Assembly: GCA_035711625.1 (NCBI GenBank)
Contig: DASTCA010000054.1
Location: 7,993-71,992, forward strand
Direction of reading: 5' to 3'
From: Gemmatimonadota bacterium
GTDB taxonomy: Bacteria > Gemmatimonadota > Gemmatimonadetes > JACCXV01 > JAHWKZ01
DNA: 64,000 bases
Part shown: positions 32,453-61,139 of the stretch, in pieces
How the letters are laid out: the number at the start of each line of letters is the position of its first letter
How positions within the stretch are numbered: the stretch's first letter is position 1
Translations under genes and position numbers: made by a program
The notes under the pieces: generated by a model
Told to the model about the DNA's origin: nothing
Database searches by the model: none
The model's input: the letters and a program-made list of their open reading frames with translations, nothing else

Positions 32453-32531
32453 GACCGGAAGGTGGGTGTCCACCCGCGGCCGGGCAAGCGCGATCGTTCC
32501 GCCGGCGGCCGGGCGCGCATAGCTTGGGCGC

Positions 32532-33914: not shown

Positions 33915-33922
33915 GCGGCTTC

Positions 33923-35753: not shown

Positions 35754-35759
35754 GGAGCG

Positions 35760-36941: not shown

Positions 36942-37021
36942 ACGCGAGGCGAAGCGGATGCGCCTGAGCTAGGCGATCGTCGACAGCCTGGCGTTCTCGG
37001 TGGGGAGAACCGGCCCGGGAC

Positions 37022-39162: not shown

Positions 39163-39623
39163 GAGCGGGTTCCCAGCGCGGCCTCGATCCCTTCGATGAT
39201 CCCGTCGTAACCGGTACAGCGGCAAAGATTTCCCGCCATGAGCTCGCGGATCGCATGCGATCGGAGAAGTCCCGGGTTCTCGAGGATCCACAGGCCGGTC
39301 ATGACGACCCCGGGGGTGCACGCCCCGCATTGCGTTGCGCCCGAGGAGAGGAGCGGCCCCAGCCGCGCGGGATCGACGGACTCGATCGTCCGGACCTCCC
39401 GCCCATCGACCTGGAACGCGGGGACGAGGCAGGAGTCGGCCGGGAGGCCGTCGATCCAGACCGTGCACGCCCCGCACTCGCCCTCGCCGCAGCCTTCCTT
39501 CGTTCCCGTCATGCCAAGGTCGTAGCGGAGGAGATCCAGGAGCCGCGCGGCCGGATCGGCCTCGACGGAAACGGCATCCCCGTTCAGCGTGAAGGAGAGC
39601 GGGAGCTCAGGCGATCCGTGCAT
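39159..39623 (-). CDS. Xanthine dehydrogenase family [2Fe-2S]-binding small subunit (CoxS/XdhC-like)
   Basis: Two [2Fe-2S] motifs (CGEGECGACTV and CGACTPG...NLCRCTGY). Confidence 0.85.
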   Translation of the reverse strand: MHGSPELPLSFTLNGDAVSVEADPAARLLDLLRYDLGMTGTKEGCGEGECGACTVWIDGLPADSCLVPAFQVDGREVRTIESVDPARLGPLLSSGATQCGACTPGVVMTGLWILENPGLLRSHAIRELMAGNLCRCTGYDGIIEGIEAALGTRS

Positions 39624-41853: not shown

Positions 41854-41872
41854 GCCGGACGAGCGGGTTCGC

Positions 41873-44098: not shown

Positions 44099-45354
44099 GC
44101 GCGAACGGGGGTCGGGCCCGGTGAGGGGTCGAACGCCTCAGCGCGAGACGCGAAGTCCGCGAAGATCTCCTCCGCCCGTTCCGGGCTCGCCGCGAACGAC
44201 GCGATCCCCACCTTCCCGAATTCGAGTGCGGCGACGGACCATGGGACGACCCCCTCGCCTCGCGCGGGATCGTAGAGGAGACCTCCCGACAGCCGGGCGA
44301 GATCATCGAAGTCCCTGGCAGAACTAGCCACGCTCCGGGTCCGGAAGGCCGCGGGTGTCGGGACTCCGAGCCTTTCCGCGCGCCTCGCGAGGCGACCCAG
44401 GAGCGCCAGCGGGTACGACGCCCCGTTGATCCTCGGGTTGATCTCGGTCAGGAAGTAGCCCGGCAGGCTCTGGCCCGTGCGCTCGACGAAATCGAAGCCG
44501 GCGCGGCCCGCGAACCCGCCCCCACGCATCCAGGCGGCGAGCGCGCGCGCGGACGCGAGCATCTCCGGCAGGCGCCGCGCCCCCGACGGGTGGACGCTGC
44601 CCTGGTAGGCGAGCGCGCCGTCGAGCAGCTGGTCGGTCGCGGCCGCGCGAAGCGCCCCCTCTTCGACGATGACCTCGACGTTGGGCGACGCGGCGGCCTC
44701 GTAGAGGGGCTCGACGACATAGGCCCGGTTGTCCGTCCTGCCGGCGATGGCCTCCAATGACGCCTCGATCCCGCGTGCGTCAGCCGTGAACGTCGAGGAC
44801 CCGGACGCCCCGGACGAGCCGCGGACGATCGCGCGGCCGGTTTCGCTCGACCGTCGCTGGATCGCGGCTCGAAGCGCGGACAGGTCGCTGGACGAAGGGG
44901 CGGGGCTGCCCGAGATCCGGACCACCTCGCCGGGTGCGATCGGGATTCCGAGTCGGCGGGCCAACCGGCGCGTGACGCGCTTCTCGTGCAGCCGGCGAAC
45001 GAGCGCGGGCGGACCACCGAGGAGCCCGGCAGGGCGCGCGAGACGCTCGCCCAGCGCGCGCGAAAGCGCGTCGGCCGCAGGGGTCGCGAAAAACGGGCTC
45101 ACCAGGATCGGCCCGAATCCGATGAGCCGGGACGCGAGTCGATCGAGAGAGTCGGCATCCGCGCAGAGACGCTGGGAGAGCCCGGTGCCGGGCACGACCC
45201 CGGGGATCACGAGCACGTCCTCCGCGCGCGGGCCGATCGACAGAGAGCCGAGGAACTCGAGGTATCCGGGCTCGACCGGGTGGGCGAGGCACACGACATC
45301 ACCCGGTCGGGCGAGGAGGAGCGCCCGCTCGCCGAGCCGTTCGAAGTCCGGCAT
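44095..45354 (-). CDS. ATP-grasp domain protein (PGM1-like); start uncertain (ATG 45354 or GTG 45417)
   Basis: ATP-grasp C-terminal motif FLTEINPRINGASYP. Its stop overlaps the start of the patatin gene. Confidence 0.55.
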   Translation of the reverse strand: MPDFERLGERALLLARPGDVVCLAHPVEPGYLEFLGSLSIGPRAEDVLVIPGVVPGTGLSQRLCADADSLDRLASRLIGFGPILVSPFFATPAADALSRALGERLARPAGLLGGPPALVRRLHEKRVTRRLARRLGIPIAPGEVVRISGSPAPSSSDLSALRAAIQRRSSETGRAIVRGSSGASGSSTFTADARGIEASLEAIAGRTDNRAYVVEPLYEAAASPNVEVIVEEGALRAAATDQLLDGALAYQGSVHPSGARRLPEMLASARALAAWMRGGGFAGRAGFDFVERTGQSLPGYFLTEINPRINGASYPLALLGRLARRAERLGVPTPAAFRTRSVASSARDFDDLARLSGGLLYDPARGEGVVPWSVAALEFGKVGIASFAASPERAEEIFADFASRAEAFDPSPGPTPVRA

Positions 45355-45448
45355 GCGGGTCACGACGACAGGAGCGTCCGGCGCCTCGGAGGGGCTGTGG
45401 ACGAACACGCGTGTCACGCGGGGAGAGCCACCCGCGCGACCCTGCGCC

Positions 45449-46708
45449 TCACGCTCGACCGGTCGCAAGGGGCTCCACCAGCGAGAGGATCGCCCGCACC
45501 TTGCCGCCGGCGCCTGGAGGGATCCGGGCCACGGACTCGACACGGAAGTCGACGCCCGGTCCCAGGAGCGGCGCGACCGCCTTCGAGAGTCCGCGGCCGG
45601 CCTCGTCGTCCACCGGTCCGTGCGGGACGCACCGCAAGACGATCCGCTCCCGGGTCTCCTGGACCAGCTGGTACTGCCGGATCCAGGGCGCAGCGGCGAG
45701 CGTGGGGCCCAGGATCCGATAGGGATGGATCCGGCGACCGTCGGCCATCTCGAAATAGTCGATCGAACGCCCTTCGATGTGGGTCAGCGTGGGTCCGGCG
45801 CGGCCACACGGGCACGCGTCCGGACCGCGGGTTACGACGTCGGTCAACCGGTAGCGGATGAGCGGGGCTGCGAAGGAATCGAGCGCGGTGACCACGATCT
45901 CGCCGGACCCGGAGACCTCGACGGGCCGGCCGTCATGGTCCAGGACCTCGACGAGCAGGTCGCTGCGACCCAGGTGCATGAGCTCGCCGCCGGGACAGTC
46001 CGACGCGAGCAATCCCACCTCGTGCGTCCCGTAGGCGTTGTGGACGGAGGCACCGAACGCGTTCCCGATCCGGGTCCGCGCGACCGTCGTCAGCACCTCT
46101 CCCGAAACCCACACGACTCGCGGACGTATATGCCGCAGCTCGGCGACGGGGATCTCGACGGCAAGGCGATCGACGACGCCCGCCATGCCGCGCAGGAAGT
46201 CGGGGCGTATCTCGGCGACCCGGCGGTGGATCTCCGGTGGATCGAGGCTGCAGTCCACGACCGTCTCCCGCACCAGCTTCAGCGCGGAGAGTGTCCCGAT
46301 CCCGTCGGGTTGAGCTTCCCGGAGCGCGAAGATCGTGGCCACCCGGTCGCCCGTCCGCAGGCCGGCGCGCAGGAGGTCGTCGAGCCAGGTCCTGGCCCAG
46401 CGGGCCTGCTCGGCTCGCGTCCGCCGGATGACGAACGGCTCGCCCGAGTATCCGGACGTCATCGTGGAAACGAGATCGTCCGGATCGACCGTTCGGTCGG
46501 TGATCTCCTCGATCGGGCGCTCCTGGAGATTCCTCTTCTCCGTGAGGGGAAGTCGCCCGATGTCGGCGACCGAACGAATGTCGGAGGGTGTGACGCCCGC
46601 CAGAGTGAAGCGCTCGCGGTAGTACGGCACCCGGCCGTACGCGTGCGCCACCAGCGCCCGCAGGCGCTCGTCCCGGCGCTCGGCGCTCCGTTCGAAAGGA
46701 ATCGTCAT
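45449..46708 (-). CDS. PaaK-like adenylate-forming enzyme (phenylacetate-CoA ligase / F390 synthetase family)
   Basis: Internal ATG (MTIPFERS...) confirmed at 46708. PaaK-type N-terminus (YGRVPYYRERF...GVTP.DIR...L..LPLTEK.NL) plus an AMP-binding core. The upstream 239 codons of the listed ORF are antisense to the hcrC-like gene and rejected. Confidence 0.75.
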   Translation of the reverse strand: MTIPFERSAERRDERLRALVAHAYGRVPYYRERFTLAGVTPSDIRSVADIGRLPLTEKRNLQERPIEEITDRTVDPDDLVSTMTSGYSGEPFVIRRTRAEQARWARTWLDDLLRAGLRTGDRVATIFALREAQPDGIGTLSALKLVRETVVDCSLDPPEIHRRVAEIRPDFLRGMAGVVDRLAVEIPVAELRHIRPRVVWVSGEVLTTVARTRIGNAFGASVHNAYGTHEVGLLASDCPGGELMHLGRSDLLVEVLDHDGRPVEVSGSGEIVVTALDSFAAPLIRYRLTDVVTRGPDACPCGRAGPTLTHIEGRSIDYFEMADGRRIHPYRILGPTLAAAPWIRQYQLVQETRERIVLRCVPHGPVDDEAGRGLSKAVAPLLGPGVDFRVESVARIPPGAGGKVRAILSLVEPLATGRA

Positions 46709-46774
46709 CGAGGAAAGACTGTCCCAGAGGGTCCCGTCGGTGCAAGGACGCCCTGCGCCATTTACCTTGTCCAG

Positions 46775-47308
46775 ATGCGGATCTACAGCCCCGAAACGAC
46801 CGTCGCGCTGCGGCTCACCGTGAACGGAGAGACGCGGACGGTATCGGTCGCGCTCCATCACACCCTGCTCGAGGTCTTGCGGGAAGATCTTGGGCTGACC
46901 GGCACGAAGCATGGCTGCGAGCTGGGGGAGTGCGGCACGTGCACGGTGCTCGTCGACGGGCGCCCGGTCCTGTCGTGCCTGGCGATCCCCGCGGCGATCG
47001 AAGGGCGGAACGTGACGACGGTCGAGGGCATGGAGACGGCGCGCGGCCTCCATCCGCTTCAGCGCTCGTTCGCGGACCTCGGCGCGGCGCAGTGCGGCTA
47101 CTGCACGCCCGGGTTCCTGCTCGCCGCGATGGCGCTCCTCGAGGAATCCCCGGACCCTTCGCGCGAGGAGATCGTCGAGGCCCTGGGGGGGAACCTCTGC
47201 CGCTGCACCGGCTACCTGAAGATCTACGAAGCCGTCGAGCTGGCGGCCGCCCGCATGCGCGGGGAGAACGCCGAACCTGCGCCGGAGACCCTGTATGGCG
47301 ACGTCTGA
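46775..47308 (+). CDS. [2Fe-2S]-binding small subunit of second molybdo-flavo enzyme (HcrC/CoxS-like)
   Basis: Motifs CELGECGTCTV and CGYCTPG...NLCRCTGY. Start is the internal ATG of listed ORF 44729..47308. Confidence 0.8.
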   Translation: MRIYSPETTVALRLTVNGETRTVSVALHHTLLEVLREDLGLTGTKHGCELGECGTCTVLVDGRPVLSCLAIPAAIEGRNVTTVEGMETARGLHPLQRSFADLGAAQCGYCTPGFLLAAMALLEESPDPSREEIVEALGGNLCRCTGYLKIYEAVELAAARMRGENAEPAPETLYGDV

Positions 47309-49775
47309 CCGTCCCGCTTCGGACGAAGGGCTGCGCGTGGTCGGCCGCTCCCTTCCCAAGGTCGATGCGGTCGCAAAGGTCACCGGCCGGACCCGGTTCG
47401 CCGATGACCTGTCCTTGCCCCGCATGCTTCACTGCAAGCTCCTCCGCTCGACCACTCCACACGCCGAGATCCGAGCGATCGACACCCGGCTCGCCGAGGC
47501 GATGAGCGGGGTGGTCGCGATCCTGACGGGCAAAGACCTGCCGATTCCGTACGGGATCCTCCCGGTCAGCGTGGACGAGCACGCCCTCTGCCTCGACAAG
47601 GTGCGGTTCGTCGGCGATCCCGTCGCCGCGGTGGCGGCCGTGGACGAGGAAACCGCCGAGGAGGCATGCCGCGCGATCGAGGTCGAGTACGCCGATCTCG
47701 ATCCCGTCGCCTCGATCGAGGACGCCCTCGACGCGGAGGATCCCAGGATCCACCTCTACGGAGACGGGCACAACGTCCACAAGGCGGTGGCGCTCGAGTT
47801 CGGGGATGTCGACGCCGCGCTCGCCGACGCCGACCTCGTCCTCGAGGACACCTTCTTCTACGAGGGGAACACGCACCTGCCGATGGAGCAGCACGCCGCG
47901 CTGGCGGAATGGCGTCCGGACGGCAAGCTCACGCTCTGGACCTCGACACAGACGCCCCACTACGTCCACCGCGCGCTGGCCCGCGTCCTCGAAGTCCCGG
48001 CCAGCCGGATTCGCGTGATCGCGACGCCGAACGGCGGTGGCTTCGGTGGGAAGAGCGATCCGTTCAACCACGAGATCGCGGTGGCGGAGCTCTCCCGCCG
48101 GACCGGCCGACCGGTGAAGATCTGCCTCACGCGCGAAGAGGTCTTTTACTGCCACCGCGGGCGGCATCCGACGCTCATGTGGATCAAGACAGGGTTCCGG
48201 AAGGACGGCTCGATCACCGGCATGCACTTTCGCTCCTACCTCGATGGCGGAGCGTACGGCAGCTACGGGGTCGCGTCGACGTATTACACAGGCGCGCTAC
48301 AAACCGTGACCTATCCCGTGCCCGCGTACCGCTTCGAGGGGTTGCGCGCGTTCACGAACAAGCCACCTTGCGGCCCGAAGCGGGGTCACGGCACGCCGCA
48401 GCCGCGCTTCGCGCTCGAGGCCCAGATCGACAAGGCCGCCGAGCGGCTCGGCCTCGATCCCGCGCGGATGCGGCTGGACCATCTCGTCGAGCCGGGCTCG
48501 GTCACCGCGAACTACATGCGGATCGGCTCGATGGGACTCGGCGCCTGCATCGAGAAGGTCGTTGGGGCCTCGGGATGGCACGCGAAGCACGGCAAGCTGC
48601 CGGAGGGGCGCGGGGTCGGAATCGCGTGCGGGAGCTACATCTCGGGCGCGGGACTGCCGATCTATTGGAATGCGATGCCCCACTCGGGCGTCCAGCTCAA
48701 ACTGGACCGGGGCGGCGGCGTGACCGTCTTCTGCGGCTCGACCGACATCGGGCAGGGGTCGGACTCGATCCTCGCGTACGTGGTCGCGGAGGTGCTCGGC
48801 GTCGATCCGTTCGAGATCGACGTCGTGACGGCGGACACGAGCCTGACGCCGGTCGACCTCGGATCGTACTCGTCCCGCGTCACCCTCATGAGCGGCAACG
48901 CGGCCATTCAGGCGGCCGAGCGCGCCCGGGAGCTCCTCGTGCAGGCAGTCGCCGAATCGTGGGGGATTCCGGGGGGCAGGGTTGCGCTCGCGGACGGCCG
49001 CGCGCTCGATGTCGAGGACCCGGATCGTTCGATTCCGTTCGCCGAGGCGGTGGTGATCGCGGAGGCGAAATTCGGCACGATCGGAACCGTCGGCTCCTAC
49101 ACGCCGCCAGCGTCCCCGGGCCGGTACAAGGGCGCGGGCGTGGGCCCGAGCCCCGCGTACTCGTACGCTGCGGCAGTCGCCGAGGTGACGGTCGATCCGG
49201 AGACCGGCGAGACCCGAGTCGAAGAGATCTGGATCGCCCACGACATCGGGCGCGCGATCAACCCCGTGGTCGCGATCGGGCAGGTCGAGGGCTCCGTGTA
49301 CATGGGGCTGGGCGAAGCGCTGATGGAGGAGATGACGTACCGTGGAAACCGCAACGTCGTCCACCGGCATCCATCGCTCCTCGAATACAAGAGCCCGACA
49401 ACCCACGAGATGTGCAAGGTCCATACGTTCCTGATCGAGGATCCCGACCCGAACGGTCCGTTCGGCGCGAAGGAGGTCGGACAGGGACCGCTGCTCCCGA
49501 TCCCGCCCGCGGTGGTCAACGCGATCCACGATGCGGTCGGGGTGCGAATCGACGAGGTTCCCGTGACTCCGCAGAAGGTGCTGGCGGCGCTCAAGCGGAA
49601 GGCGAAGGGGCAGGAGCCGCGAGAAGGTCCGGGACCCGTCCCGGAGTTCGCGTGGCCCGAGTCGGTGCAGGTTCGTCCGCCCTGGGAAGGGGGCGACGGA
49701 CGCGCCGACGACGACCCGCGCCGGATCGGCGCCGGCGGGGTGCGCGGCGACGTGACCGGGGGCGTTCCCGCATGA
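47295..49775 (+). CDS. Molybdopterin-binding large subunit of second molybdo-flavo enzyme (HcrA/CoxL-like)
   Basis: 826 aa with GGGFGGK and typical XDH-family blocks. It overlaps the small-subunit stop. Confidence 0.8.
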   Translation: MATSDRPASDEGLRVVGRSLPKVDAVAKVTGRTRFADDLSLPRMLHCKLLRSTTPHAEIRAIDTRLAEAMSGVVAILTGKDLPIPYGILPVSVDEHALCLDKVRFVGDPVAAVAAVDEETAEEACRAIEVEYADLDPVASIEDALDAEDPRIHLYGDGHNVHKAVALEFGDVDAALADADLVLEDTFFYEGNTHLPMEQHAALAEWRPDGKLTLWTSTQTPHYVHRALARVLEVPASRIRVIATPNGGGFGGKSDPFNHEIAVAELSRRTGRPVKICLTREEVFYCHRGRHPTLMWIKTGFRKDGSITGMHFRSYLDGGAYGSYGVASTYYTGALQTVTYPVPAYRFEGLRAFTNKPPCGPKRGHGTPQPRFALEAQIDKAAERLGLDPARMRLDHLVEPGSVTANYMRIGSMGLGACIEKVVGASGWHAKHGKLPEGRGVGIACGSYISGAGLPIYWNAMPHSGVQLKLDRGGGVTVFCGSTDIGQGSDSILAYVVAEVLGVDPFEIDVVTADTSLTPVDLGSYSSRVTLMSGNAAIQAAERARELLVQAVAESWGIPGGRVALADGRALDVEDPDRSIPFAEAVVIAEAKFGTIGTVGSYTPPASPGRYKGAGVGPSPAYSYAAAVAEVTVDPETGETRVEEIWIAHDIGRAINPVVAIGQVEGSVYMGLGEALMEEMTYRGNRNVVHRHPSLLEYKSPTTHEMCKVHTFLIEDPDPNGPFGAKEVGQGPLLPIPPAVVNAIHDAVGVRIDEVPVTPQKVLAALKRKAKGQEPREGPGPVPEFAWPESVQVRPPWEGGDGRADDDPRRIGAGGVRGDVTGGVPA

Positions 49776-49797
49776 GCGTGCAGCGGAGCTCACTCGC

Positions 49798-50787
49798 ATG
49801 ATGCGACTTCCGCGATTCGAGTACCGCGCCCCGGCCTCGATCGCCGACGCCGTCGCAGCGAAGGCCGACGCGCCACCCGACGCCATGTACGTCGCCGGCG
49901 GAACGGACCTGTATCCGAACATGAAGCGCCGCCACCAGGTGCCGGGAACCCTGATCGCGCTCCACGGGGTCGAGGAGCTGAGGGGGATCGACACCCGCGC
50001 GGACGGAGGGATCTCGATCGGCGCCGGGGCCACGCTCACGGCGGTACGTCGCGACCCGCGCGTCCGCGCTTGCTGGCCCGCGCTGGCCGAGACATGCCGG
50101 CTGATCTCGACCCCGATCCTGCAGAACATGGGGACCCTCGGAGGCAATCTGCTCCTCGACACGCGCTGCAACTACTACGACCAGAGCTTCGATTGGCGGA
50201 GCGCGATCGACTTCTGCATGAAGAAGGACGGGTCGATCTGCTGGGTCGCCCCGTCGTCGCCGCGCTGCTGGGCGGTCCAGTCGGCGGACACAGTGCCGCT
50301 CCTCGTCGCGTTGGGAGCCGATGTCGATCTCGCGAGCGTCTCGGGGAAGCGGCGCGTGCCGGTCGCGGCACTCTACCGCGACGACGGGATCGTGTATCTC
50401 GCGAAGCAGCGCGACGAGCTCCTGACCCATGTGCACCTGCCCGCGCCGAACGGCTGGCGCGTGGTCTACCGTAAGGTGCGCCGTCGCGGGGCGTTCGACT
50501 TCCCGGTGCTCGGAGTCGGTGCCTGGGTGCGATTCGCCGGCGACGGCTCGGTCGCCGAGGCGCGCGTAGTGCTGGGCGGGGTCGGATCGTCACCCGAGGT
50601 CGTCGAGTCCGCGTCGGTCGCGCTGGTGGGTGGACGCCTCGAGGACGAGGCCATCGAAGCGGCCGCCACCGCCGCGTGGAAGGCGGGTCGTCCGCTCGAC
50701 AACACGGACTTCACGATCTCCTGGCGCAAGGAGATGATCCGGCCCACTGTCGCCCGTGCTCTGAGGGAGCTCCGGGGAGCACCGTGA
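49798..50787 (+). CDS. FAD-binding subunit with four-Cys insertion (candidate [4Fe-4S] loop), HcrB-like
   Basis: FAD motif VAGGTDL. The insertion LLLDTRCNYYDQSFDWRSAIDFCMKKDGSICWVAPSSPRCWAV carries 4 Cys. Such an insert is typical of the 4-hydroxybenzoyl-CoA reductase beta subunit and absent from the other FAD subunit at 38338..39162. Confidence 0.75.
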   Translation: MMRLPRFEYRAPASIADAVAAKADAPPDAMYVAGGTDLYPNMKRRHQVPGTLIALHGVEELRGIDTRADGGISIGAGATLTAVRRDPRVRACWPALAETCRLISTPILQNMGTLGGNLLLDTRCNYYDQSFDWRSAIDFCMKKDGSICWVAPSSPRCWAVQSADTVPLLVALGADVDLASVSGKRRVPVAALYRDDGIVYLAKQRDELLTHVHLPAPNGWRVVYRKVRRRGAFDFPVLGVGAWVRFAGDGSVAEARVVLGGVGSSPEVVESASVALVGGRLEDEAIEAAATAAWKAGRPLDNTDFTISWRKEMIRPTVARALRELRGAP

Positions 50788-51368
50788 AGATCGCGGGGAT
50801 CGTCCTCGCGGCGGGGCGCTCTGCGAGGATGGGCAGCCCGAAGGCGCTCCTGGAGATCGGCGACCGCACGTTCCTCGAACGCGCGATCGGGATCCTCGAG
50901 CGCGGCGGCTGCGCTGACGTGATCGCCGTGCTCGGCCGCGGCGAAGTCGTGGGTCGCGCCGGCGAGCTGGCTCGCGCGCACGGCGCCAAACCGGTTGAAA
51001 GTCCCGGCGGCGAACAGATCGAGAGTCTTCGCCTGGGCTTGGCCGCCGTCCCGGCCGACGCCGCCGCCGCCGTGGTCCTTCCAGTCGACCATCCTCTCGC
51101 AGACGCGCGCACGGTTGCCGCCCTGATCGGCGAGTTCGAAGCCACCGGTTCGCCGATCGTGCGGCCGGTCTACCGTGATCGGCCAGGTCACCCGATTCTG
51201 CTCGCGCGGGGCCTTTGGCTGGAGTTCGCGGATCCGGCTCTCGAGGAGGGCGCCCGCGACGTCATTCACCGCCACGCCGAGGAGATCCACGACGTCCCGA
51301 TCAACGACCGCGGCGTCACGGTCGACATCGACACTCCCGCGGAGTATCAGCGCGAGATCGGCTCGTGA
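50784..51368 (+). CDS. mocA: Molybdenum cofactor cytidylyltransferase (MocA-type nucleotidyltransferase)
   Basis: N-terminus [18 protein letters not shown]. The GTG overlaps the upstream stop. It sits in the maturation position downstream of the Mo enzyme. Confidence 0.7.
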   Translation: MKIAGIVLAAGRSARMGSPKALLEIGDRTFLERAIGILERGGCADVIAVLGRGEVVGRAGELARAHGAKPVESPGGEQIESLRLGLAAVPADAAAAVVLPVDHPLADARTVAALIGEFEATGSPIVRPVYRDRPGHPILLARGLWLEFADPALEEGARDVIHRHAEEIHDVPINDRGVTVDIDTPAEYQREIGS

Positions 51369-52183
51369 AGCGACTGGACGTCGCCGAGGCCCTCTCGATC
51401 GCCCGTCGCGCGATCGCCGCGGGACAGGACGCCGCGCTCGCCGTCGTCGTCTCCGCTCCGGAAGCCGGCCTCGTCGGCGCGCGCCTGGCGTGGGACGGTC
51501 ACGCCCATCATGGCGGGCTGGGGAGCGCGGACGTCGATGACGAGGGGCACGCGCTCCTGGAAGCCGCCCCCGACGTCCCGGGATGCCGGACCCTCGCGTG
51601 CGGGATCGAGCTGTATGTGGAGCGCTGGTCGCCGCGTCCTGAGATCGTGATCGTCGGTGCCGGCCACGTCGCCCGGCCGCTCGCTACGGTGGGCCGTCTG
51701 CTCGACTTCCGCGTCACGGTGCTCGATGACCGGCCCAAGCTCGCGACTCGCGAGCGCTTCCCGGACGCCGATCGGGTGATCGTGGCCGACTTCGAGCGGC
51801 CGTTCGCGGACGTCGCGGTCGGGCCCCGGACGAGCCTCGTCCTCGTCACGCGCGGGCACCGTCACGACTACGACTGCCTGCGGGCGCTGGCCGCGACCGG
51901 CACGGAACCCTCGTACGTGGGAATGATCGGGAGCCGCAGGCGGGTGCGTGCCGCGTTCGAGCAGCTCGCGGCGGAAGGCGTGGACGCGGTGTGGCTTTCC
52001 CGGATCCACGCACCGCTGGGACTCGACATCGGGGCGGAGAGCCCGGCGGAAATCGCGATCGCGGTGGGAGCCGAGATCGTCCTGGCCTCGCGCGGCGGGA
52101 GCGGGCGGCCGCTGTCAGAGAAGGCGGACGTCCTCCGTCACGTGCGCGCGCTCGCGCGAACGGGCCCGGTGGAGGCGTCATGA
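51365..52183 (+). CDS. XdhC/CoxI family protein, Rossmann-like C-terminal domain (encoded first)
   Basis: IVIVGAGHVARPLA dinucleotide-fold motif in an XdhC-like sequence. Confidence 0.7.
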   Translation: MKRLDVAEALSIARRAIAAGQDAALAVVVSAPEAGLVGARLAWDGHAHHGGLGSADVDDEGHALLEAAPDVPGCRTLACGIELYVERWSPRPEIVIVGAGHVARPLATVGRLLDFRVTVLDDRPKLATRERFPDADRVIVADFERPFADVAVGPRTSLVLVTRGHRHDYDCLRALAATGTEPSYVGMIGSRRRVRAAFEQLAAEGVDAVWLSRIHAPLGLDIGAESPAEIAIAVGAEIVLASRGGSGRPLSEKADVLRHVRALARTGPVEAS

Positions 52184-52518
52184 CGGAAGCGCTCGACGTC
52201 CTGTCGGCGTTCGAGGACGCGGTACGGGCCCGTCGGCCCGTGGTATTGGCCACGATCGTCCGGGCGAAGGGATCGACCCCGCGCGGCGTCGGGAGCCGGA
52301 TGACGATCGAGCCGGGCGCGGGTGCGGTGGGGACGATCGGCGGGGGATGCGGCGAGGCCCAAGTGGTCGAGGACGCGAGAGCGGCCCTGGCCGAACGCCG
52401 CCCGCGCCTCGTGCGCGTGAACCTGACCGAGGATCTCTATTCCTGGAGCCCAGCCGTGTGCGGGGGGGTATTCGACGTCCTGCTAGAGCCCTGGTGGCCG
52501 CCGGACCAAGGCGAATGA
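52180..52518 (+). CDS. XdhC/CoxI N-terminal domain protein (encoded second; split and permuted relative to canonical XdhC)
   Basis: VVLATIVRAKGSTPRGVGSRM...GTIGGGCGE matches the XdhC N-terminal domain. The ATG overlaps the upstream stop. Confidence 0.6.
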   Translation: MTEALDVLSAFEDAVRARRPVVLATIVRAKGSTPRGVGSRMTIEPGAGAVGTIGGGCGEAQVVEDARAALAERRPRLVRVNLTEDLYSWSPAVCGGVFDVLLEPWWPPDQGE

Positions 52519-52580
52519 GCCGGGGATCCCTCGGGCGAGTAGAATAGGCGGTCACGTCAACCCTCGTTACGGAGAACCGC

Positions 52581-53288
52581 ATGGCCTTGCGCGTCGCTCT
52601 CGTCCTCGGTGCGGCGGCGATCCTCGCCGCTAGCGTCTTCGGCCTCTTCTTCCGCTCCGCTCGCACCACGCGGGACACGATCCAGGTCACCGGCGCGGCC
52701 ACCGAGCGCTTCGAGGCGGATGTCGTGAAGTGGTCGATCACGATCAGCCGACAGGTGGGGACCGACGGAGTGGCCGACGGGTACACCGCCCTCCGCGAGG
52801 ACCGCGCGCGGGTCACCGGCGCACTCGCGCAGTCCGGTATCGCCGAGGGCGCGGTAAACGTGCAACCGGTCAGCGTGAATCCCCGCTGGGACCAGTTCGG
52901 AAGCCAGGTCGGGTTCAGCCTCGACCAGGGCCTGACCGTGGTCGCCGAAGGCGGCGGCCAGGCCCTGGAGGCGATCGCCCTGGACCCGGGACCTCTGCTC
53001 GAGAGCGGTGTCGTGCTCCAGTTCTCGCGGCTGGAGTACTTCTATTCCGGCATCGACGAGCTGAAGCACTCGTTGCTGTCCCAGGCCACCGCCGACGCGC
53101 GCCGGCGCGCGGAGGAGATCGCGGGCGGCTCCGACATGGCCGTCGACAAGATCGTCTCCGCCCGGGCCGGGGTGTTTCAGATCACGGAGCCCTTTTCGAC
53201 CGAGGTCAGCGACTACGGGGTGCACAACACAGCCACGCGCAGCAAGGAGATCACGGTAACCGTCCACGCGACGTTCACCGTCGACTGA
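52581..53288 (+). CDS. SIMPL domain (DUF541) periplasmic protein
   Basis: Signal peptide plus a SIMPL pattern (RLEYFYSGIDELKHSLLSQATADARRRAEEIA). Confidence 0.7.
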   Translation: MALRVALVLGAAAILAASVFGLFFRSARTTRDTIQVTGAATERFEADVVKWSITISRQVGTDGVADGYTALREDRARVTGALAQSGIAEGAVNVQPVSVNPRWDQFGSQVGFSLDQGLTVVAEGGGQALEAIALDPGPLLESGVVLQFSRLEYFYSGIDELKHSLLSQATADARRRAEEIAGGSDMAVDKIVSARAGVFQITEPFSTEVSDYGVHNTATRSKEITVTVHATFTVD

Positions 53289-54062
53289 ATGCTGTTCCTG
53301 GTGACGAACGACGACGGGTACCTGGCACCGGGCCTGCGTTCGTTGTCGGGAGCGCTGGAAGAACTGGGCGAGGTCGTCGTCGTCGCTCCGGATCGCGAGC
53401 AGTCCGCCACCAGCCATTCCCTCACGCTCCACCACCCGCTCCGGGTCCGGCAGACCGCTGACAACCGCTACCACGTCGACGGCACGCCCACGGACTGCGT
53501 GATGCTCGCCGTGAACGCGATCCTCGAACGGCGGCCGGATTACGTGTTCAGCGGGATCAACCACGGGGGGAACATGGGGGAGGACGTATCGTACTCAGGG
53601 ACCGTTTCGGCCGCCATGGAGGCCACGCTCCTGGGGATTCCGTCCGTCGCCGTGTCTCTTGTCCACGCGAACGAGGAGTGGCTCGAAGGCTACGAGCACG
53701 TGGTCCGGCGACTCGCGCGCATGATCGTGGAGGAACCGCGCCAGACGCTCTTTCCCGCCGACACATTGCTCAACGTGAACCTGCCGGATCGGCATCCCGA
53801 CACCATCGAAGGGGTTCGGATCACCACGCTCGGGAAGCGGGTCTACTCGGACCCCGTGCTCACCGACAAGGACCCGCGCGGCAAGACCTACTACTGGATC
53901 GGCGGGGGAGAGCCGACCTGGGAGGGGCCCGAGGAAGCGGACTATCGGGCCGTGGAGCGCGGATATATCTCGATCACGCCCGTCCACTTGGACCTCACGA
54001 ACCATCGCGTCATCCCGCACCTCAAGAAGTGGGAGTCCTTCGCGCTGCAGGGCGGCGCGTGA
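53289..54062 (+). CDS. surE: 5'/3'-nucleotidase SurE
   Basis: N-terminal MLFLVTNDDGY...APDREQSATSHSLT is a classic SurE start. Confidence 0.85.
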   Translation: MLFLVTNDDGYLAPGLRSLSGALEELGEVVVVAPDREQSATSHSLTLHHPLRVRQTADNRYHVDGTPTDCVMLAVNAILERRPDYVFSGINHGGNMGEDVSYSGTVSAAMEATLLGIPSVAVSLVHANEEWLEGYEHVVRRLARMIVEEPRQTLFPADTLLNVNLPDRHPDTIEGVRITTLGKRVYSDPVLTDKDPRGKTYYWIGGGEPTWEGPEEADYRAVERGYISITPVHLDLTNHRVIPHLKKWESFALQGGA

Positions 54063-54646
54063 CCTGGCACCGCCGGTTATACCACTGGGTCCTGTCGTGG
54101 GCGGAGCACCCGCAAGCGACGTGGGCCCTGTTCGCGCTCGCGTTCGCGGAATCGTCCTTTTTCCCGATCCCCCCGGACGTGCTGCTGATCGCGCTCTGCC
54201 TGGGCCAGCCGCGTCGGGCGTGGTGGTACGCGGTCGTGTGCACGATCGGCAGCGTCCTGGGCGGTCTCGCCGGGTATGCGATCGGCATGGGCCTCTACGA
54301 ATCGGTCGGCCGTCCGATCCTCGAGTTCTACGGGCTCATGGAGAGGTACGGTGAGGTTCAGGAACTCTACCGTCGCTACGACGTCTGGGCGGTCGGTATC
54401 GCGGGGCTCACGCCGATCCCCTACAAGGCGTTCACGGTCACGGCCGGCGCCTTCGAGATCTCCCTGCCGGGCTTCGTCGCGGCCAGTATCGTCGGTCGCG
54501 GTCTTCGCTTCGGACTCGTCGCGACATTGCTCCGGCTCTGGGGAGAACCCGCGCGCGAGTTCATCGACCGCCATCTCGGGATCCTGACGATTCTCTTCGC
54601 CGTTTTGCTCGTCGGCGGATTCTTCGTCATCCGGATGGCTCTCTGA
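54059..54646 (+). CDS. DedA/YqaA family membrane protein
   Basis: FAESSFFPIPPDVLL signature. The GTG overlaps the surE stop. Confidence 0.75.
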   Translation: MTWHRRLYHWVLSWAEHPQATWALFALAFAESSFFPIPPDVLLIALCLGQPRRAWWYAVVCTIGSVLGGLAGYAIGMGLYESVGRPILEFYGLMERYGEVQELYRRYDVWAVGIAGLTPIPYKAFTVTAGAFEISLPGFVAASIVGRGLRFGLVATLLRLWGEPAREFIDRHLGILTILFAVLLVGGFFVIRMAL

Positions 54647-54682
54647 CGCGTTCGGGCTGGGGCGGTTCCGGCAAACGAAAGG

Positions 54683-54710
54683 TTTACAAATGAAAGGAAT
54701 TCCGTATAAT
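54683..54710 (+). promoter_or_regulatory. Near-consensus sigma70 promoter: -35 TTTACA, 16-nt spacer, -10 TATAAT
   Basis: Seen directly. It is AT-rich and lies about 55 nt upstream of the Lys-rich micro-ORF. Confidence 0.4.
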
Positions 54711-54762
54711 CGGTGCAATTCACCGTAGTTGACCGGGACCTGAAACCACGGAGGAACGACGC

Positions 54763-54837
54763 ATGGCCAAGAAGAAGACGGCCAAGAAGCCGGCGAAGAA
54801 GTCGGCGAAGAAGTCGAAGAAGAGCAAGAAGAAGTAG
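54763..54837 (+). CDS. 24-aa lysine-rich micro-protein MAKKKTAKKPAKKSAKKSKKSKKK
   Basis: A GGAGGAA SD sits 7 nt upstream of the ATG. It has its own promoter and an intrinsic terminator, and is absent from the ORF track because of its size. Confidence 0.45.
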   Translation: MAKKKTAKKPAKKSAKKSKKSKKK

Positions 54838-54861
54838 CCTTCGTTCCACGAGCAGTTGGCG

Positions 54862-54890
54862 AAGGGCCGCCCGTTTCGGGCGGCCCTTTG
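54862..54890 (+). terminator. Rho-independent terminator (AAGGGCCGCCCG-TTTC-GGGCGGCCCTTT + U-tract)
   Basis: Perfect GC-rich hairpin followed by a T-run, immediately after the micro-ORF. Confidence 0.6.
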
Positions 54891-54968
54891 CGCTTGGGGG
54901 TCCTCGGAACTCGCGTTGCCGGAGCGCGGAGGGGCGGGTAGTTTCTCGATTCTGCCGTTGGAAATCGT

Positions 54969-55045
54969 CGGGGAGTAGCTCAGCCCGGTAGAGCACTACG
55001 TTCGGGACGTAGGGGTCGCAGGTTCAAATCCTGTCTCCCCGACCA
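54969..55045 (+). tRNA. tRNA-Pro (anticodon CGG)
   Basis: Manual fold: acceptor CGGGGAG/CUCCCCG, D-arm GCUC/GAGC, anticodon stem CUACG/CGUAG with loop UUCGGGA, T-loop UUCAAAU, discriminator A, CCA. Confidence 0.9.
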
Positions 55046-55109
55046 CGAAGAAGCGCGCGGAGGGCATGCCCCCCGCGCGCTCGTCGTTTCGGCCCCCGGG
55101 CGTGGCGGG

Positions 55110-57719
55110 TCAGAAGGTCAGCGTGACGCCACCCAGTGCGCGGCTGCCGATCACCGAGCCCCCGTAGAGCTCGTAGTGCTGCTTGTCCAACACGTTGCTC
55201 CATACCAGGTTGAGCCGCGCCCACTCGTTCACCACATAGCCTCCGTTCAGGTCCACGGTCGCGAAGCCGGGGACGTGCCCCGCGAACACCCCGGCCGCCC
55301 AATCGAACCCTTCCTGGAGGTGGACGCTGGATCCCACGCTCCAGCGATCCAGGTTGTTGAACGTGAACCCGAGGTTCCCTTTGTGCTTGGGCGTGTTGGG
55401 GAGCAGGGCGTCGCCCGCCAGCGTGCTCTCTTCCACGTTGAAGTCGAAGTACGTGTAGTTCCCGAAGATCTCCCACTTGACCGCCGGCTGAACGCTGAGA
55501 CCGACCTCGACTCCGCTCTCTGTGACACGGCCCGCGTTCGCGTAGGAAAGCACGTACTCGAGCGTCCCGTCGGGCTTCAGGACGAGGAGCGGGGCCACCG
55601 CCCCGACGGCCCCCGTCGTGAGCGCCTGGAGGACCGCCGGCGCGAACGCCGACAGGGGCGGCGATCCGAAGGCGGGCTGATACGCCACCAGGTCCTCGAC
55701 CGAGTCAAAGGTCTCGAAATCCGGGTGCACGCCCGGAAGGAGGTCGGTGACGAAGTCCTCGATCTCGTTGTAATAGATGTCCGCCGTGGCGTACGCCCGG
55801 CCGCCCATGAAGGATCCCTTCCAGCCCACCTCGTAGCCCGTCAGCTGTTCGGCCGTGAGCTCTGAGTTCCCGCGGGCGACGACCGGCGTGGGAACGAAGT
55901 TGAGCGGGAGGTCGATCGGCTGGCCTATCTGGGCGCTGATCGCCGCCTCGAGCCCCAGCTCGACCTGATTGAGCGGAATCACCGGGCCCGCTGCCACGCG
56001 CAGGAACATCTCCGAGTAGTTCGGCGTCTGGAACGCGCGGTTGAAGGTGAAGCGCAGCGAGTGCTCCGGGTTCGGGCTGAACACCAGCGCCGCCTTCGGC
56101 GAGACCTCGTTCTGGTCGGAGTCCAGCACCGAGAAGTGATCGAAGCGCGCGGCGGCCAGCAGGTTCAACATCGGGTGGATCTGGTACTCCACCTGCCCGA
56201 AGAGGCTCGAAATCGTGTCCTCGTGCTTGTCCTCCATGAGCGTGCCGTCGGTGTCGACCGAGACCCAGCGGTTCGAGCCGCCGCCGATCAGGCGGAACCG
56301 CTCGTCGGACGTGCTCCAGTTCGCCTGGCCCTCGATGTGGAACAGATCCGATGCCTCGAGGAGCACCGCGCCCGAAGCCAGGGCCGTCTGGTTGTTGCCC
56401 TCGCACGTGTCGCGCGGGATGCACAGCTCGGTGAACTCGTTGAGGGGCGGAGGGGCGGGGTTGCCCTCGCGGTCGTTCGCCCGCCGTCCGCTGTACCAGC
56501 CGAAGACGGTGAACCGGTCGGAAGCGTATTGGGTGCGTGCCCAGGGCCGGTTGGAGCCGTTGATCTGAACGCGTCCGATCCCGGTGACGAACAGCTCGTT
56601 CTCGGTGAATGTGTTTCCACCCTCCGCCGTCCAGACCGAGCCGTTGTCGAAGTTGTAGTCGAGGCGGGCGCTCCCGTAGAGCGAGCTCACGGGATCGTCG
56701 ATCAGCGGCACGGCCTCGACAGGCAGCCCCGCGATTTCGACATCACCCTCGACGAAATTGCAGTTCCGCGCCGTGGCGGGGCAATCACCGACGGCCAGGT
56801 CCCGAGTGCGGGAGGCGGACCACGAGTCGCCGACCCGCACGTACCCCACGTTCGCCTTGTAGCCCACGTTGCCGCTCGCCGTTTCGCCCGCATGCCGCAG
56901 GTCGAAGCGCCCGGATGCGCGCTCGCCTCCCGAAGCCGCGATCTTCGTCCCGACCACGTCGGCTGGGGCGGGCGTCGAGATGTTCAGCACGCCGCTGAAC
57001 GCGTTCGCACCGTAGAGTGCGGAGCCCGGGCCGCGGACCAGCTCGAGCTGACCGAGGTCATCCAGGGGCATCGACAGCGCCGTCCATTCCTGCGCCTGCA
57101 GGAAGCCGACGCTGCGGTCGATCCCGTCCTGGAGGACGAGCACACGCCGGTTGAGCGACGAGTTGTATCCGCGGGCGTTGATATTGAAGTCCTGGACGCC
57201 GCTCTGCACCACGTCGATCCCTGGCTGGTCCGTGAACAGCTTCGGAAGCTGCCCGTGGATCGCCTTTCGCTGGATTTCCTCGGGGGTCACGACGCTGACC
57301 GCCGCGGGCGCCTCCACAATCCGGGTCGGGCGCCGGCTGGCGCCCCTTACGGTGATCGCGCCCATCTCCACGTAGCCCGCGGTCAACGCGATGTCGACGG
57401 TCGCGGTCTCGCCGGCCGCCACGTCGACCTCCTCCCGCAGCGTCTCGAAGCCGAGCACGGAGACGACCAGCGTCTGCGGGCCTGCCGGAACGTTCGCGAT
57501 GCTATACGTCCCGCGCTGGCCGGAAACGGTTCCGATCCCCGTGCCGTCGATGACGATCTGGGCGCCGGCGACGGCGCCGCCAGTGGCGGCTTCGGTGACG
57601 GTCCCGACGACGCGCCCGGTTCCCTGTCCGAACACGGGCGAGCCGAGCGCGAGGAGCAGAGCCGCTCCCAATAGCACCGACGGAACGAACGATGAGCCCG
57701 ACCTGGACTGGATCCGCAT
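55110..57719 (-). CDS. TonB-dependent outer-membrane receptor with N-terminal carboxypeptidase-regulatory-like domain
   Basis: Internal ATG ([33 protein letters not shown] signal peptide), a CarbopepD_reg-like segment, a TonB box/plug and a C-terminal beta-barrel ending ...GGVTLTF. The upstream 442 codons of the listed ORF are rejected. Confidence 0.8.
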
Positions 57720-59322: not shown

Positions 59323-60293
59323 CCCTGCCCGCGAAGGAGCGCGATCCGGCCGTGTCCCGCGAGTGGCTCCCCCGCGCGCTCCTCCTGGATCCCAGCGCGC
59401 TCCCCGGCGGAGCATGCTGGGCCGACGCGCGTGTGCTGGATCTGGCCGAGGTGCCGATTCTTCTGGGCTGGCGCCGCGGCGGCGGTCTCGTGGTCACCGG
59501 GGCTGCGGAAGGGGAAGCGACGCTCGAGCTCTTCGTCGCTGTGCGTCGATTCGCGAAGTCGGCGACCGGCTGGTCGGAAGAGCGGTGCGATGCGGCGTTC
59601 CGGGAGTTCTGGTCCCGGGCCCAGCGTCCGCTACGGGAGGCGCTCGAGGCACGTCTGCCGCTCCCTCCTCCCGAGGACTGGACGCTCGAGTCGTGGGCGG
59701 TGGCGGTATGGGGGAGGTTCACGGGCGCGGTCGAGCCGCCCGCCATGGTCGTCGTCGGGACCTCGGTTTCGGACGCCGTCGTGGACGCGGTCCTGTCCTG
59801 TGTCGGGCCCGGGCGGACGGCCGCGTTCACCGTCTCTCCGCTCGACGAGTCTCGGAGCCGTGTCCGTTGCTCGCTCGTCGTCGGCGAGCTCGATCCCTCC
59901 GCCGACCGCGTGCTGCCGGGTGTGCTCGAGGGACCGGTGGCTGGGGACTACCGTCCGGACCGGGAACGCAGCCCCGCGCAGCTGATCGGGGCGATCGAGC
60001 GCATCGCGGGGGAGTTCGGAGCGGTGTCGCGCTGGTTTCGCAAGGACTGGGTGCGGATCGAAGGCAGCGGCGGAGCGATCCGGGTGTTCCCGCGTGGAGA
60101 AGGGGCCTGGCTCCAGCTGGCCGGGATCGACGAGGGCACGCTGGCGGGTCTTCGCTATCGACATGGGATCGCGCTCGACATGCCGGCCCAGGCCGACGCC
60201 CCCCCCGGCGCGCACTTGTTCCTCCCGAACGCAGATGCATTCACGCCACAGATCGAGGCGGTCGTACGGCGCTGGCTGCGCGGCCCGGACTAG
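59319..60293 (+). CDS. Hypothetical protein (324 aa), translationally coupled to apt
   Basis: The GTG overlaps the apt stop. No recognisable motifs. Confidence 0.4.
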   Translation: MTLPAKERDPAVSREWLPRALLLDPSALPGGACWADARVLDLAEVPILLGWRRGGGLVVTGAAEGEATLELFVAVRRFAKSATGWSEERCDAAFREFWSRAQRPLREALEARLPLPPPEDWTLESWAVAVWGRFTGAVEPPAMVVVGTSVSDAVVDAVLSCVGPGRTAAFTVSPLDESRSRVRCSLVVGELDPSADRVLPGVLEGPVAGDYRPDRERSPAQLIGAIERIAGEFGAVSRWFRKDWVRIEGSGGAIRVFPRGEGAWLQLAGIDEGTLAGLRYRHGIALDMPAQADAPPGAHLFLPNADAFTPQIEAVVRRWLRGPD

Positions 60294-60922: not shown

Positions 60923-61029
60923 GGGCTTGAAGATACCGACCCTACCCGATCCGGCCCGCGCTGTTACATTCCATCGGATTCCAGGCTTCGAGTCGTGCCC
61001 GGGCCGACGGTCCGCGCCGCTCCCGCATC

Positions 61030-61106
61030 CGCCCCCGTAGCTCAGGTGGATAGAGCAGCGGTTTCCTAAACCGCGTGTCGTGCGTTCGAATCGCGCCGGG
61101 GGCACC
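61030..61106 (+). tRNA. tRNA-Arg (anticodon CCU)
   Basis: Manual fold: acceptor GCCCCCG/CGGGGGC, D-arm GCUC/GAGC, anticodon stem GCGGU/ACCGC with loop UUCCUAA, T-loop UUCGAAU, discriminator A, CCA. Confidence 0.85.
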
Positions 61107-61139
61107 ACTCCATCTCGACTTCAAGGTGATTCTCATATC

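Follow-up and report, generated by a model that had tools for sequence, protein, structure and literature searches.

A 4-hydroxybenzoyl-CoA reductase-related molybdenum enzyme clade of Gemmatimonadota with glutamine at the position of the catalytic glutamate

We analyzed a 64-kb stretch of DNA from a Gemmatimonadota bacterium (contig DASTCA010000054.1; here called the window) that encodes a three-subunit molybdenum (Mo) enzyme belonging to the xanthine oxidase (XO) family, related to 4-hydroxybenzoyl-coenzyme A (CoA) reductase (4-HBCR). Its closest homologs point to a Gemmatimonadota metagenome-assembled genome as the source. Genes in this DNA (G+C content, ∼69%) were resolved from lists of open reading frames (ORFs), third-position GC content, and translations. 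The locus is made up of two divergent gene sets, a rightward Mo-enzyme set and a leftward set headed by a ligase gene, and Pfam and NCBIfam searches confirmed every domain assignment in both. The features of the rightward set, in which MCD stands for molybdopterin cytosine dinucleotide, are as follows.

46775-47308, plus strand: 2Fe-2S subunit, 177 amino acids (aa), two [2Fe-2S] clusters; Pfam Fer2 and Fer2_2
47295-49775, plus strand: Mo (molybdopterin, MCD) subunit, 826 aa, HcrA related; Pfam hammerhead, MoCoBD_1, and MoCoBD_2
49798-50787, plus strand: FAD subunit, 329 aa, with an HcrB-type insertion of ∼43 aa
50167-50268, plus strand: DNA of the four-cysteine loop C124-C157 (C-x15-C-x7-C-x8-C), which aligns to HcrB without gaps
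50784-51368, plus strand: MocA-type molybdenum cofactor cytidylyltransferase; Pfam NTP_transf_3
51365-52183, plus strand: XdhC_C-containing ORF; Pfam XdhC_C (E = 1.8e-41)
52180-52518, plus strand: stand-alone XdhC_CoxI protein, 112 aa; Pfam XdhC_CoxI (E = 3e-23)

The order of the three subunit genes (FeS, Mo, and FAD, or γ-α-β) is that of hcrCAB, so the gene placement and hcrCAB-like order given in a preliminary description of this DNA agree with the coordinates and with the domain calls. The rightward set continues past the XdhC_CoxI ORF with SIMPL and then SurE genes. By its domains, the enzyme has an Mo-MCD center, two [2Fe-2S] clusters, FAD, and an extra predicted [4Fe-4S] cluster on the FAD subunit. 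The 2Fe-2S subunit shows neither a Tat signal nor any other signal peptide in its sequence and is probably cytoplasmic.

The most interesting feature of the locus, absent from the preliminary description, lies in the active site of the Mo subunit (NCBI HET9333209.1). The hammerhead, MoCoBD_1, and MoCoBD_2 domains of the XO family are all present, and the active-site motifs are STQ219, GGGFGGKS254, PPCGPKR363GHGT, and GAKEVGQ730GP. The general-base glutamate of the family, however, is not conserved: the catalytic glutamate (HcrA E726 and bovine XO E1261) is Gln730 in the window enzyme, encoded by CAG at 49482-49484 within the motif FGAKEVGQ730GPLLP. Alignments place this column with Eubacterium barkeri NdhM E289, Desulfovibrio gigas AOR E869, and the corresponding Glu of CoxL as well as with HcrA E726. 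STQ219 and R363 are invariant in the Mo-subunit alignment; we take them, by their motifs, to occupy the positions of bovine XO Q767 and R880. The window contains a second xanthine dehydrogenase (XDH)-type system, whose Mo subunit keeps the Glu (GAKGLGELP).

The substitution is strictly conserved among these orthologs. Gln occurs in all seven genomic orthologs that cover the site (68 to 91% identity) and in 80/80 metagenome orthologs (66 to 75% identity), that is, in 87/87 altogether. It is also present in cluster representative P0219 (64% identity), in P0223 (50% identity), and in the Dehalococcoidia protein P0254; in the P0223 lineage and in P0254, it possibly arose independently of the window clade. 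Across 134 cluster representatives with an intact motif, the column holds E in 117, Q in 8, and another residue in 9. A single origin of Gln is not claimed: a first neighbor-joining (NJ) tree placed P0223 within one Q clade, and bootstrapping supports this placement at only 9.5%. A literature search returned nothing relevant on Gemmatimonadota 4-HBCR-like enzymes or on natural Glu-to-Gln variants. Other parts of the Mo subunit also depart from HcrA. Two Mo-site motifs differ (GGGFGGKSD versus GGGFGARTE and PPCGPKRGHGT versus PPCGAMRGHGT), and a C-terminal extension runs ∼55 aa beyond the HcrA end (residues ∼771 to 826; 49606-49775). Its consensus motif, AWPEPxRVPPPWxGGDGRA, occurs in the Gemmatimonadota clade and in P0219, not in P0223 or Thauera HcrA.

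To place the enzyme relative to 4-HBCR, we compared it with structures, profile models, and homologs. The Mo subunit scores 629 bits against Thauera aromatica HcrA (1rm6_A), versus 274 for the next structure, and the FAD subunit scores 212.6 bits against HcrB (1rm6_B), versus 98.6. The best NCBIfam models are likewise the 4-HBCR subunits, with the α and β models first by a wide margin. None of the three cutoffs is reached, however: the Mo subunit scores 836.6 bits with TIGR03194 (cutoff, 994.55; next NCBIfam family, 524), the FAD subunit scores 287.6 bits with TIGR03195 (cutoff, 404.55), and the 2Fe-2S subunit scores 174.1 bits with TIGR03193 (cutoff, 257.8), roughly level with other XDH small-subunit models. 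Ten representatives were scored against the HcrA model, and only the positive control, the true HcrA representative P0238, passes (1301.7 bits). The truncated P0253 (634 aa) falls barely below the cutoff with 980.6 bits, and P0219, P0220, P0222, P0223, P0224, P0229, P0230, and P0236 score 771 to 960 bits, like the window protein.

An exhaustive HMMER search of 1.84 billion cluster representatives recovered many proteins that resemble the window enzyme more closely than does Thauera HcrA (∼42% identical). In a bootstrapped NJ tree, the window enzyme and P0219 join at 100%, and T. aromatica HcrA and P0238 join at 100% in a separate group; the window clade and HcrA share a superclade, inside which NJ trees do not settle the order of the subclades. 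As all three equivalog cutoffs are missed and the clade is separate, while the HcrA control passes, the enzyme is not a 4-HBCR equivalog. The aroyl-CoA reductase-type assignment of the preliminary description thus holds at the level of the superclade and fails at the level of the ortholog: by these profile and tree comparisons, the window enzyme belongs to a separate, uncharacterized clade of the 4-HBCR-related superclade. This clade is common in soil Gemmatimonadota.

The FAD subunit carries the feature that most resembles 4-HBCR. Its loop reads TRC124-NYYDQSFDWRSAIDF-C140-MKKDGSI-C148-WVAPSSPR-C157, with the spacing C124-x15-C140-x7-C148-x8-C157, and aligns without gaps to T. aromatica HcrB (1rm6_B), so that the four cysteines match HcrB C122, C138, C146, and C155 (residue numbers counted from the alignment). 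An 81-aa segment containing the loop retrieves HcrB on its own (E = 1.8e-14) and aligns only with gaps to the aldehyde oxidase subunit of Methylobacillus (5y6q_B). We aligned 120 homologs (60 to 95% identity) with the window FAD subunit and HcrB. All four loop cysteines are invariant in these 122 sequences, whereas the protein's two other cysteines vary freely; conservation of this kind is far beyond chance. The same TRC-x15-C-x7-C-x8-C loop occurs in the FAD subunits of three other superclade members. Spacing and conservation both bear out the HcrB-like loop that had been proposed, and the [4Fe-4S] ligands are predicted to be Cys124, Cys140, Cys148, and Cys157. An AlphaFold2 model of the FAD subunit (predicted local distance difference test score [pLDDT], 81 overall) has 1rm6_B as its top Foldseek match. 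It had also been claimed that only this one of the window's two systems carries the insertion, which is correct: its FAD_binding_5 domain covers 211 residues where the profile has 170 positions, while that of the other system is of normal length (168 aa) and without an insertion, making the insertion unique, within the window, to the 4-HBCR-like operon.

That other XDH-type system lies on the minus strand (Mo, 39607-41853; FeS, 39159-39653; FAD, ∼38400-39162) and adjoins genes for a DUF6986 protein (37022-38416), a membrane Urate_ox_N protein (35754-36941), and an amidohydrolase (32523-33914). Positions 32523 to 41853 have the look of a cluster for purine/urate catabolism. Locus L084 lacks the block that lies between the ferritin gene (31502-32023) and the 4-HBCR-like operon; there, ferritin and Cpn10 genes come immediately before the operon.

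The operon also has maturation genes of its own. The mocA start overlaps the stop of the FAD gene by 4 bp, and the MocA scores with TIGR03310 (115.7 bits) and NF045665 (134 bits) are below the cutoffs. The XdhC_C ORF carries the Rossmann half (residues 94 to 238) and matches positions 185 to 342 of the XdhC_rel_AOR profile NF045664, and the XdhC_CoxI ORF that follows matches positions 3 to 99. As the two ORFs match the profile in this order, the split and the swapped order of XdhC are real, and the Pfam and NCBIfam profile positions support the earlier reading of a dedicated mocA and a two-ORF XdhC with the Rossmann domain first. The same split, swapped XdhC recurs in loci L002 to L007, L084, and L169. 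A degenerate XdhC_CoxI domain hidden in the ∼90-aa N terminus of the XdhC_C ORF was considered and dropped, as neither BLASTP nor Pfam gave a signal. On sequence grounds, MocA makes the MCD cofactor and the two-piece XdhC inserts and sulfurates it. A second MobA/MocA-like nucleotidyltransferase (NTP transferase) gene lies at 60290-61120 on the minus strand and adjoins a TPR/YfiO-like gene (61041-61892); the same pair is found in L084 (19312-20833).

The leftward set begins just upstream of the 2Fe-2S gene. Its genes are all on the minus strand and codirectional.

46709-46774, no strand: divergent intergenic region between the CapK-like and 2Fe-2S genes, exactly 66 bp
45449-46708, minus strand: CapK-family member of the adenylate-forming PaaK/F390-synthetase superfamily, 419 aa; heads the leftward operon
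44095-45417, minus strand: PGM1-like ATP-grasp ligase; Pfam Pre-ATP-grasp and PGM1_C
41873-44098, minus strand: patatin-like phospholipase fused to an Omp85 β-barrel, with an N-terminal signal-like sequence; Pfam Patatin and Omp85

The 66-bp gap (46709 to 46774) and the divergent orientation are as first described. In this intergenic region, a scan for sigma-70 promoters and terminators found nothing, and an Rfam scan gave no match and no Moco riboswitch; the sole RNA-family match in positions 40000 to 56000 is a tRNA gene (54969-55042, plus strand; RF00005, 66 bits). The likely start of the ATP-grasp gene is the GTG at 45417, 31 nucleotides (nt) after the CapK-like stop, which gives a protein of 440 aa, versus 438 and 453 aa in homologs. 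An 8-bp overlap of the two genes, implying translational coupling, was ruled out for the window by codon inspection, which gives the 31-nt gap. The patatin/Omp85 start and the ATP-grasp stop share 4 bp (GTGA). A second patatin/POTRA/Omp85 fusion of 755 aa (13356-15623, plus strand) is a paralog of the protein encoded at 41873-44098.

Assignment of the ligase to the PaaK/F390-synthetase adenylating enzymes holds for the superfamily and not for PaaK itself. Its NCBIfam scores are far below the cutoffs (DVU_1553 family, 134 against 300 bits; PaaK models NF041878, 110.3 against 700, and TIGR02155, 85.2 against 646.3). The database protein P0001, identical to the window ligase, carries the CapK_C domain (PF27533), as do most close homologs, and the C-terminal domain of PaaK (PF14535) appears only in hits with ≤31% identity to the ligase. 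The best NCBIfam models of the ligase, MocA, and XdhC all fall in the Desulfovibrio set of DVU_1551, DVU_1553, and XdhC_rel_AOR. To judge from the model names and numbers (NF045664 to NF045668), the DVU_1553 family, which gives the best model for the ligase, may go with aldehyde-oxidoreductase maturation genes in Desulfovibrio. A maturation role for the ligase was nevertheless rejected, given scores far below the cutoffs and 73/73 loci without XO-family genes.

These 73 loci come from a survey in which 20 ligase relatives were aligned and 80 genomic loci were retrieved with 10-kb flanks. The Mo operon adjoins the ligase only in the seven closest loci (59 to 66% ligase identity), which form one syntenic lineage sharing a ∼17-kb block from surE to the second XDH system; in the other 73, an Mo or FAD subunit gene within 10 kb was never found (0/73). 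Conversely, the ligase is present in 0/83 other loci of the Mo-enzyme clade (L084 to L086 and 80 metagenome loci). The partner that does recur is the ATP-grasp gene, which immediately follows the ligase in 7/7 close loci and in 29/67 of the distant loci with enough downstream sequence, and the patatin/Omp85 gene follows it in L001 to L006. The preliminary description had paired the ligase with the Mo enzyme for CoA activation of the substrate, with a shared promoter region, and had named association with the ATP-grasp/patatin genes in relatives as what would count against this; the reciprocal counts (0/73 and 0/83) speak against the pairing, and that association is what the relatives have. Taken together, these comparisons indicate that the CapK-like gene stands outside the Mo-enzyme system, that it works with the downstream ATP-grasp ligase, and that it came to lie next to the Mo operon by an accident of gene order specific to this lineage.

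Elsewhere, the CapK-like/ATP-grasp pair is found in what is, by gene content, a cell-surface glycan or amino-acyl modification cluster. In L081 to L083, the order is GT4 glycosyltransferase, AMP-binding, BKACE, CapK-like, Pre-ATP-grasp, FemAB-like/Acetyltransf_6, GNATs, and polysaccharide flippase. These glycosyltransferase and flippase genes surround the pair in L081 to L083 and not in the window, which has patatin/Omp85 instead. In locus L006, the ATP-grasp gene is followed by two patatin/Omp85 copies in tandem. Four to five CapK-like paralogs are arrayed in tandem in L051 (5261-12594) and L080 (7106-14195), from a Gemmatimonadales and a Dehalococcoidia metagenome-assembled genome, and many other ligase loci carry two copies, which suggests that the CapK-like paralogs are a diversifying family of adenylating enzymes.

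We then compared the surroundings of the Mo operon across its clade. In L084, the nearest outgroup (Mo subunit 83% identical), a Cpn10 gene takes the divergent position in place of the ligase, and the locus retains mocA, the two xdhC pieces, and surE; L085 and L086 have only the three subunit genes. The window and 93 further 4-HBCR-like loci (the 7 syntenic genome loci, L084 to L086, and 83 of the L087-L166/L084 range) contain no IOR/POR, BcrAD, or HMGL genes, and apart from the CapK-like gene found in the window lineage, they contain no PaaK-type ligase. Nor did the scanned window ORFs (most, not all, of the 64 kb) include a ferredoxin, 2-oxoacid:ferredoxin oxidoreductase, benzoyl-CoA, or aromatic-CoA gene. 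Ferredoxin and aromatic-CoA genes, which the preliminary description suggested looking for, were thus found neither in these ORFs nor in the ∼90 clade loci.

The three-gene unit is not always contiguous: an ORF of ∼640 aa with an N-terminal signal-like sequence lies between the Mo and FAD genes in six metagenome loci (L087 [12425-14344], L111, L121, L127, L132, and L133), and a nitroreductase gene and a SPOR-domain gene lie there in L169, an otherwise stand-alone E-type locus with the same split XdhC. One metagenomic sublineage within L087 to L166 (e.g., L137, 2665-3903, and L119, 13393-14829) has neighbors that we named by eye from the sequence: a divergent M19-dipeptidase-like gene adjoining the Mo operon in at most 26 loci, several of them spurious antisense ORFs; a PadR-like regulator in 14 loci; and a TenA/PqqC-like gene in 12. 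These recurrent neighbors were considered as a sign of a pathway and set aside, as they look like lineage synteny.

We propose, with a probability of roughly 0.6, that the window enzyme is a stand-alone 4-HBCR-related enzyme of a separate clade, with Gln for the catalytic Glu, a bias toward reductive chemistry, and no link to the neighboring ligase. Electrons would pass along a chain of [4Fe-4S], FAD, two [2Fe-2S] clusters, and Mo, as in 1RM6, and because the chain would be that of 1RM6, the partner in the exchange would be ferredoxin-like, a one-electron carrier, and not NAD(P). Reductive removal or transfer of an oxygen atom would be more likely than classical hydroxylation, since the general-base Glu that hydroxylation needs is a conserved Gln. 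Candidate reactions would dehydroxylate or deoxygenate an aromatic or heteroaromatic compound. More tentatively, and with the odds against it, a clade with a permanent Glu-to-Gln change may, if the Gln reflects function, consist of obligate reductases or oxygen-atom abstractors that work without a general base on a substrate class new to the family.

Several observations weigh against this proposal. A clade-typical Glu three residues upstream of Q730 (in GAKE) is a candidate alternative acid/base that would make the Gln tolerable, and the subclade relations are unsettled, P0223 joining the window clade in just 9.5% of bootstraps. In the AlphaFold2 model, the loop (residues 122 to 155) has a pLDDT of <50, as expected when no cluster is modeled, and gives no confident Cys geometry. 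The divergent arrangement of the Mo operon and the CapK-like gene is kept in seven genomes, within the syntenic ∼17-kb block. In addition, two distant relatives sit in richer surroundings. Locus L167 (P0223, Q type, 50% identity; 7505-18301) has the three subunit genes followed codirectionally by large and small aconitase-like subunits, a genuine PaaK-type ligase (AMP-binding_C_2), an HMGL-like enzyme, and IOR, with an ABC transporter and a hemerythrin upstream; this gene string looks like an uncharacterized anaerobic pathway. In L170 (P0220, Ignavibacteriales, E type, 949 aa; 77-12450), the 2Fe-2S domain is fused to the Mo subunit; upstream of the fused gene are two BcrAD/BadFG-type ATPases, an ADH, an acyl-CoA dehydrogenase, and an IOR-like 2-oxoacid:ferredoxin oxidoreductase pair, and downstream are the loop-bearing FAD subunit and then MocA. 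In view of these contexts, the substrate may yet be a thioester whose ligase is encoded elsewhere in the genome. Finally, the loop does not fix the direction of the reaction. The preliminary description took it as a sign of reverse operation, yet a [4Fe-4S] cluster is likewise present in the FAD subunit of the aldehyde-oxidizing PaoABC (PMC13404670), and the reductive dehydroxylase Ucd has no such loop (PMC12658268).

Three other explanations have to be weighed against the proposed stand-alone enzyme. The enzyme might be a 4-HBCR-type (hydroxy)aroyl-CoA reductase whose CoA-thioester substrate is made by the divergent PaaK-like enzyme under a shared regulatory region. HcrA, HcrB, and HcrC are its closest characterized relatives, the loop spacing is identical, the 66-bp arrangement is retained in seven related genomes, the two distant superclade loci just described have the enzyme in an operon with a PaaK-type ligase and/or with IOR and BcrAD-type genes, and the best NCBIfam model of the ligase (DVU_1553 family) may go with aldehyde-oxidoreductase maturation genes. 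We consider this very improbable all the same, as the ligase and the Mo enzyme occur together in 0/73 and 0/83 of the reciprocal loci, L084 having Cpn10 in the ligase's place and 29/67 distant ligase loci having the ATP-grasp gene instead. The ligase moreover has CapK_C rather than PF14535 and scores 85 to 134 bits against cutoffs of 300 to 700, the 4-HBCR equivalog cutoffs are missed, the catalytic Glu is not conserved, and no ferredoxin, 2-oxoacid:ferredoxin oxidoreductase, or benzoyl-CoA gene is found among the scanned window ORFs. If the CapK-like gene is irrelevant, the enzyme could instead be a reductive dehydroxylase of aroyl- or acyl-CoA or of free phenols, like 4-HBCR or Ucdh, with the ligase and a low-potential donor encoded elsewhere in the genome. 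The conserved HcrB-type cluster of this superclade member, which in 1RM6 takes electrons from ferredoxin, fits such a role, as do the loss of the hydroxylation base, compatible with a dedicated reductase, and the thioester and ferredoxin-generating contexts of L167 and L170; XO-family reductive dehydroxylases of free phenols do exist (Ucdh; PMC12771579). On the other side, some 90 clade loci provide no supporting context, HcrA itself keeps the Glu, and the substrate-pocket motifs differ from those of HcrA (GGGFGGKSD for GGGFGARTE and GPKRGHG for GAMRGHG). Soil Gemmatimonadota are also mostly aerobes, which counts against a reductive dehydroxylase, and we regard this explanation as unlikely, if a serious contender.

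An ordinary oxidative dehydrogenase or hydroxylase, acting on an aldehyde or N-heterocycle in the manner of PaoABC, with the [4Fe-4S] cluster as the electron exit and the Gln merely tolerated, seems to us quite unlikely. The strictness of the Gln in 87/87 orthologs suggests selection rather than drift, and E730 variants of the Rhodobacter capsulatus XDH are reportedly inactive. Similarity to PaoB and PaoC is far lower than that to the 4-HBCR subunits (86 versus 213 bits for HcrB and 220 versus 629 bits for HcrA), and no Tat signal is present. Nevertheless, a stand-alone, detoxification-like distribution without pathway neighbors would suit an oxidase, PaoABC and the Methylobacillus aldehyde oxidase oxidize their substrates although their FAD subunits bear a Cys-rich insertion (PMC13404670), and most members of the XO family are oxidative (PMC12771579).

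What is new here is an abundant and routinely misannotated 4-HBCR-related clade in which, by alignment, Gln replaces the catalytic Glu. Pipelines of the JGI/KEGG style label this clade "4-hydroxybenzoyl-CoA reductase." Since the enzyme lacks both equivalog status and an aromatic-CoA context, these genes are not a safe basis for assigning anaerobic breakdown of aromatics to Gemmatimonadota, and should the obligate-reductase reading be true, aerobic soil bacteria may be wrongly credited with degrading aromatics anaerobically. A clade this abundant, with the electron-entry cluster of 4-HBCR retained and the hydroxylation base missing, is also a concrete, expressible candidate for a third kind of chemistry. 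The locus further illustrates that a short divergent intergenic region can mislead: here, a comparison of ∼170 loci was what separated two unrelated operons.

Among known systems, the leftward operon is best compared with CapK-family enzymes (PF27533) paired with PGM1-like ATP-grasp proteins. The window protein and its relatives share CapK_C and the following Pre-ATP-grasp protein; in the window lineage, patatin/Omp85 follows and the glycosyltransferase and flippase genes are not adjacent. For the Mo enzyme, PaoABC of Escherichia coli (5G5G) and the Methylobacillus aldehyde oxidase (5Y6Q) are likewise heterotrimeric XO-family enzymes with a Cys-ligated [4Fe-4S] cluster in the FAD subunit (PMC13404670). 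Their FAD subunits align across the insertion, with a Methylobacillus loop that differs in length and spacing and is gapped; no alignment across the loop was obtained for PaoB. Unlike the window enzyme, PaoABC is Tat exported, PaoC keeps the catalytic Glu, and the overall similarity is much lower. The urolithin C dehydroxylase of Enterocloster (Ucdh/Ucd) is a three-subunit MCD enzyme of the XO family with 4-HBCR as its closest characterized relative (PMC12771579 and PMC12658268), and it carries out reductive dehydroxylation without a CoA thioester (PMC12771579). It differs in being only ∼33% identical to 4-HBCR, and thus more distant from it than the window enzyme is, in lacking the [4Fe-4S] loop, and in being substrate induced in a gut anaerobe.

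The closest comparison remains 4-HBCR itself (HcrCAB/HbaBCD; T. aromatica, PDB 1RM6 and 1SB3; TIGR03193 to TIGR03195). The window enzyme is only ∼42% (Mo) and ∼39% (FAD) identical to it, has Gln where HcrA has E726, bears the extra ∼55-aa tail on the Mo subunit, and comes from soil Gemmatimonadota hosts, with no linked ligase, ferredoxin, or benzoyl-CoA pathway in the scanned ORFs. The two nevertheless share the γ-α-β gene order, the three subunit architectures, the MCD type of cofactor, and an FAD-subunit insertion equal in length and four-Cys spacing, and 4-HBCR is the best PDB and NCBIfam match for both the Mo and FAD subunits by a wide margin.

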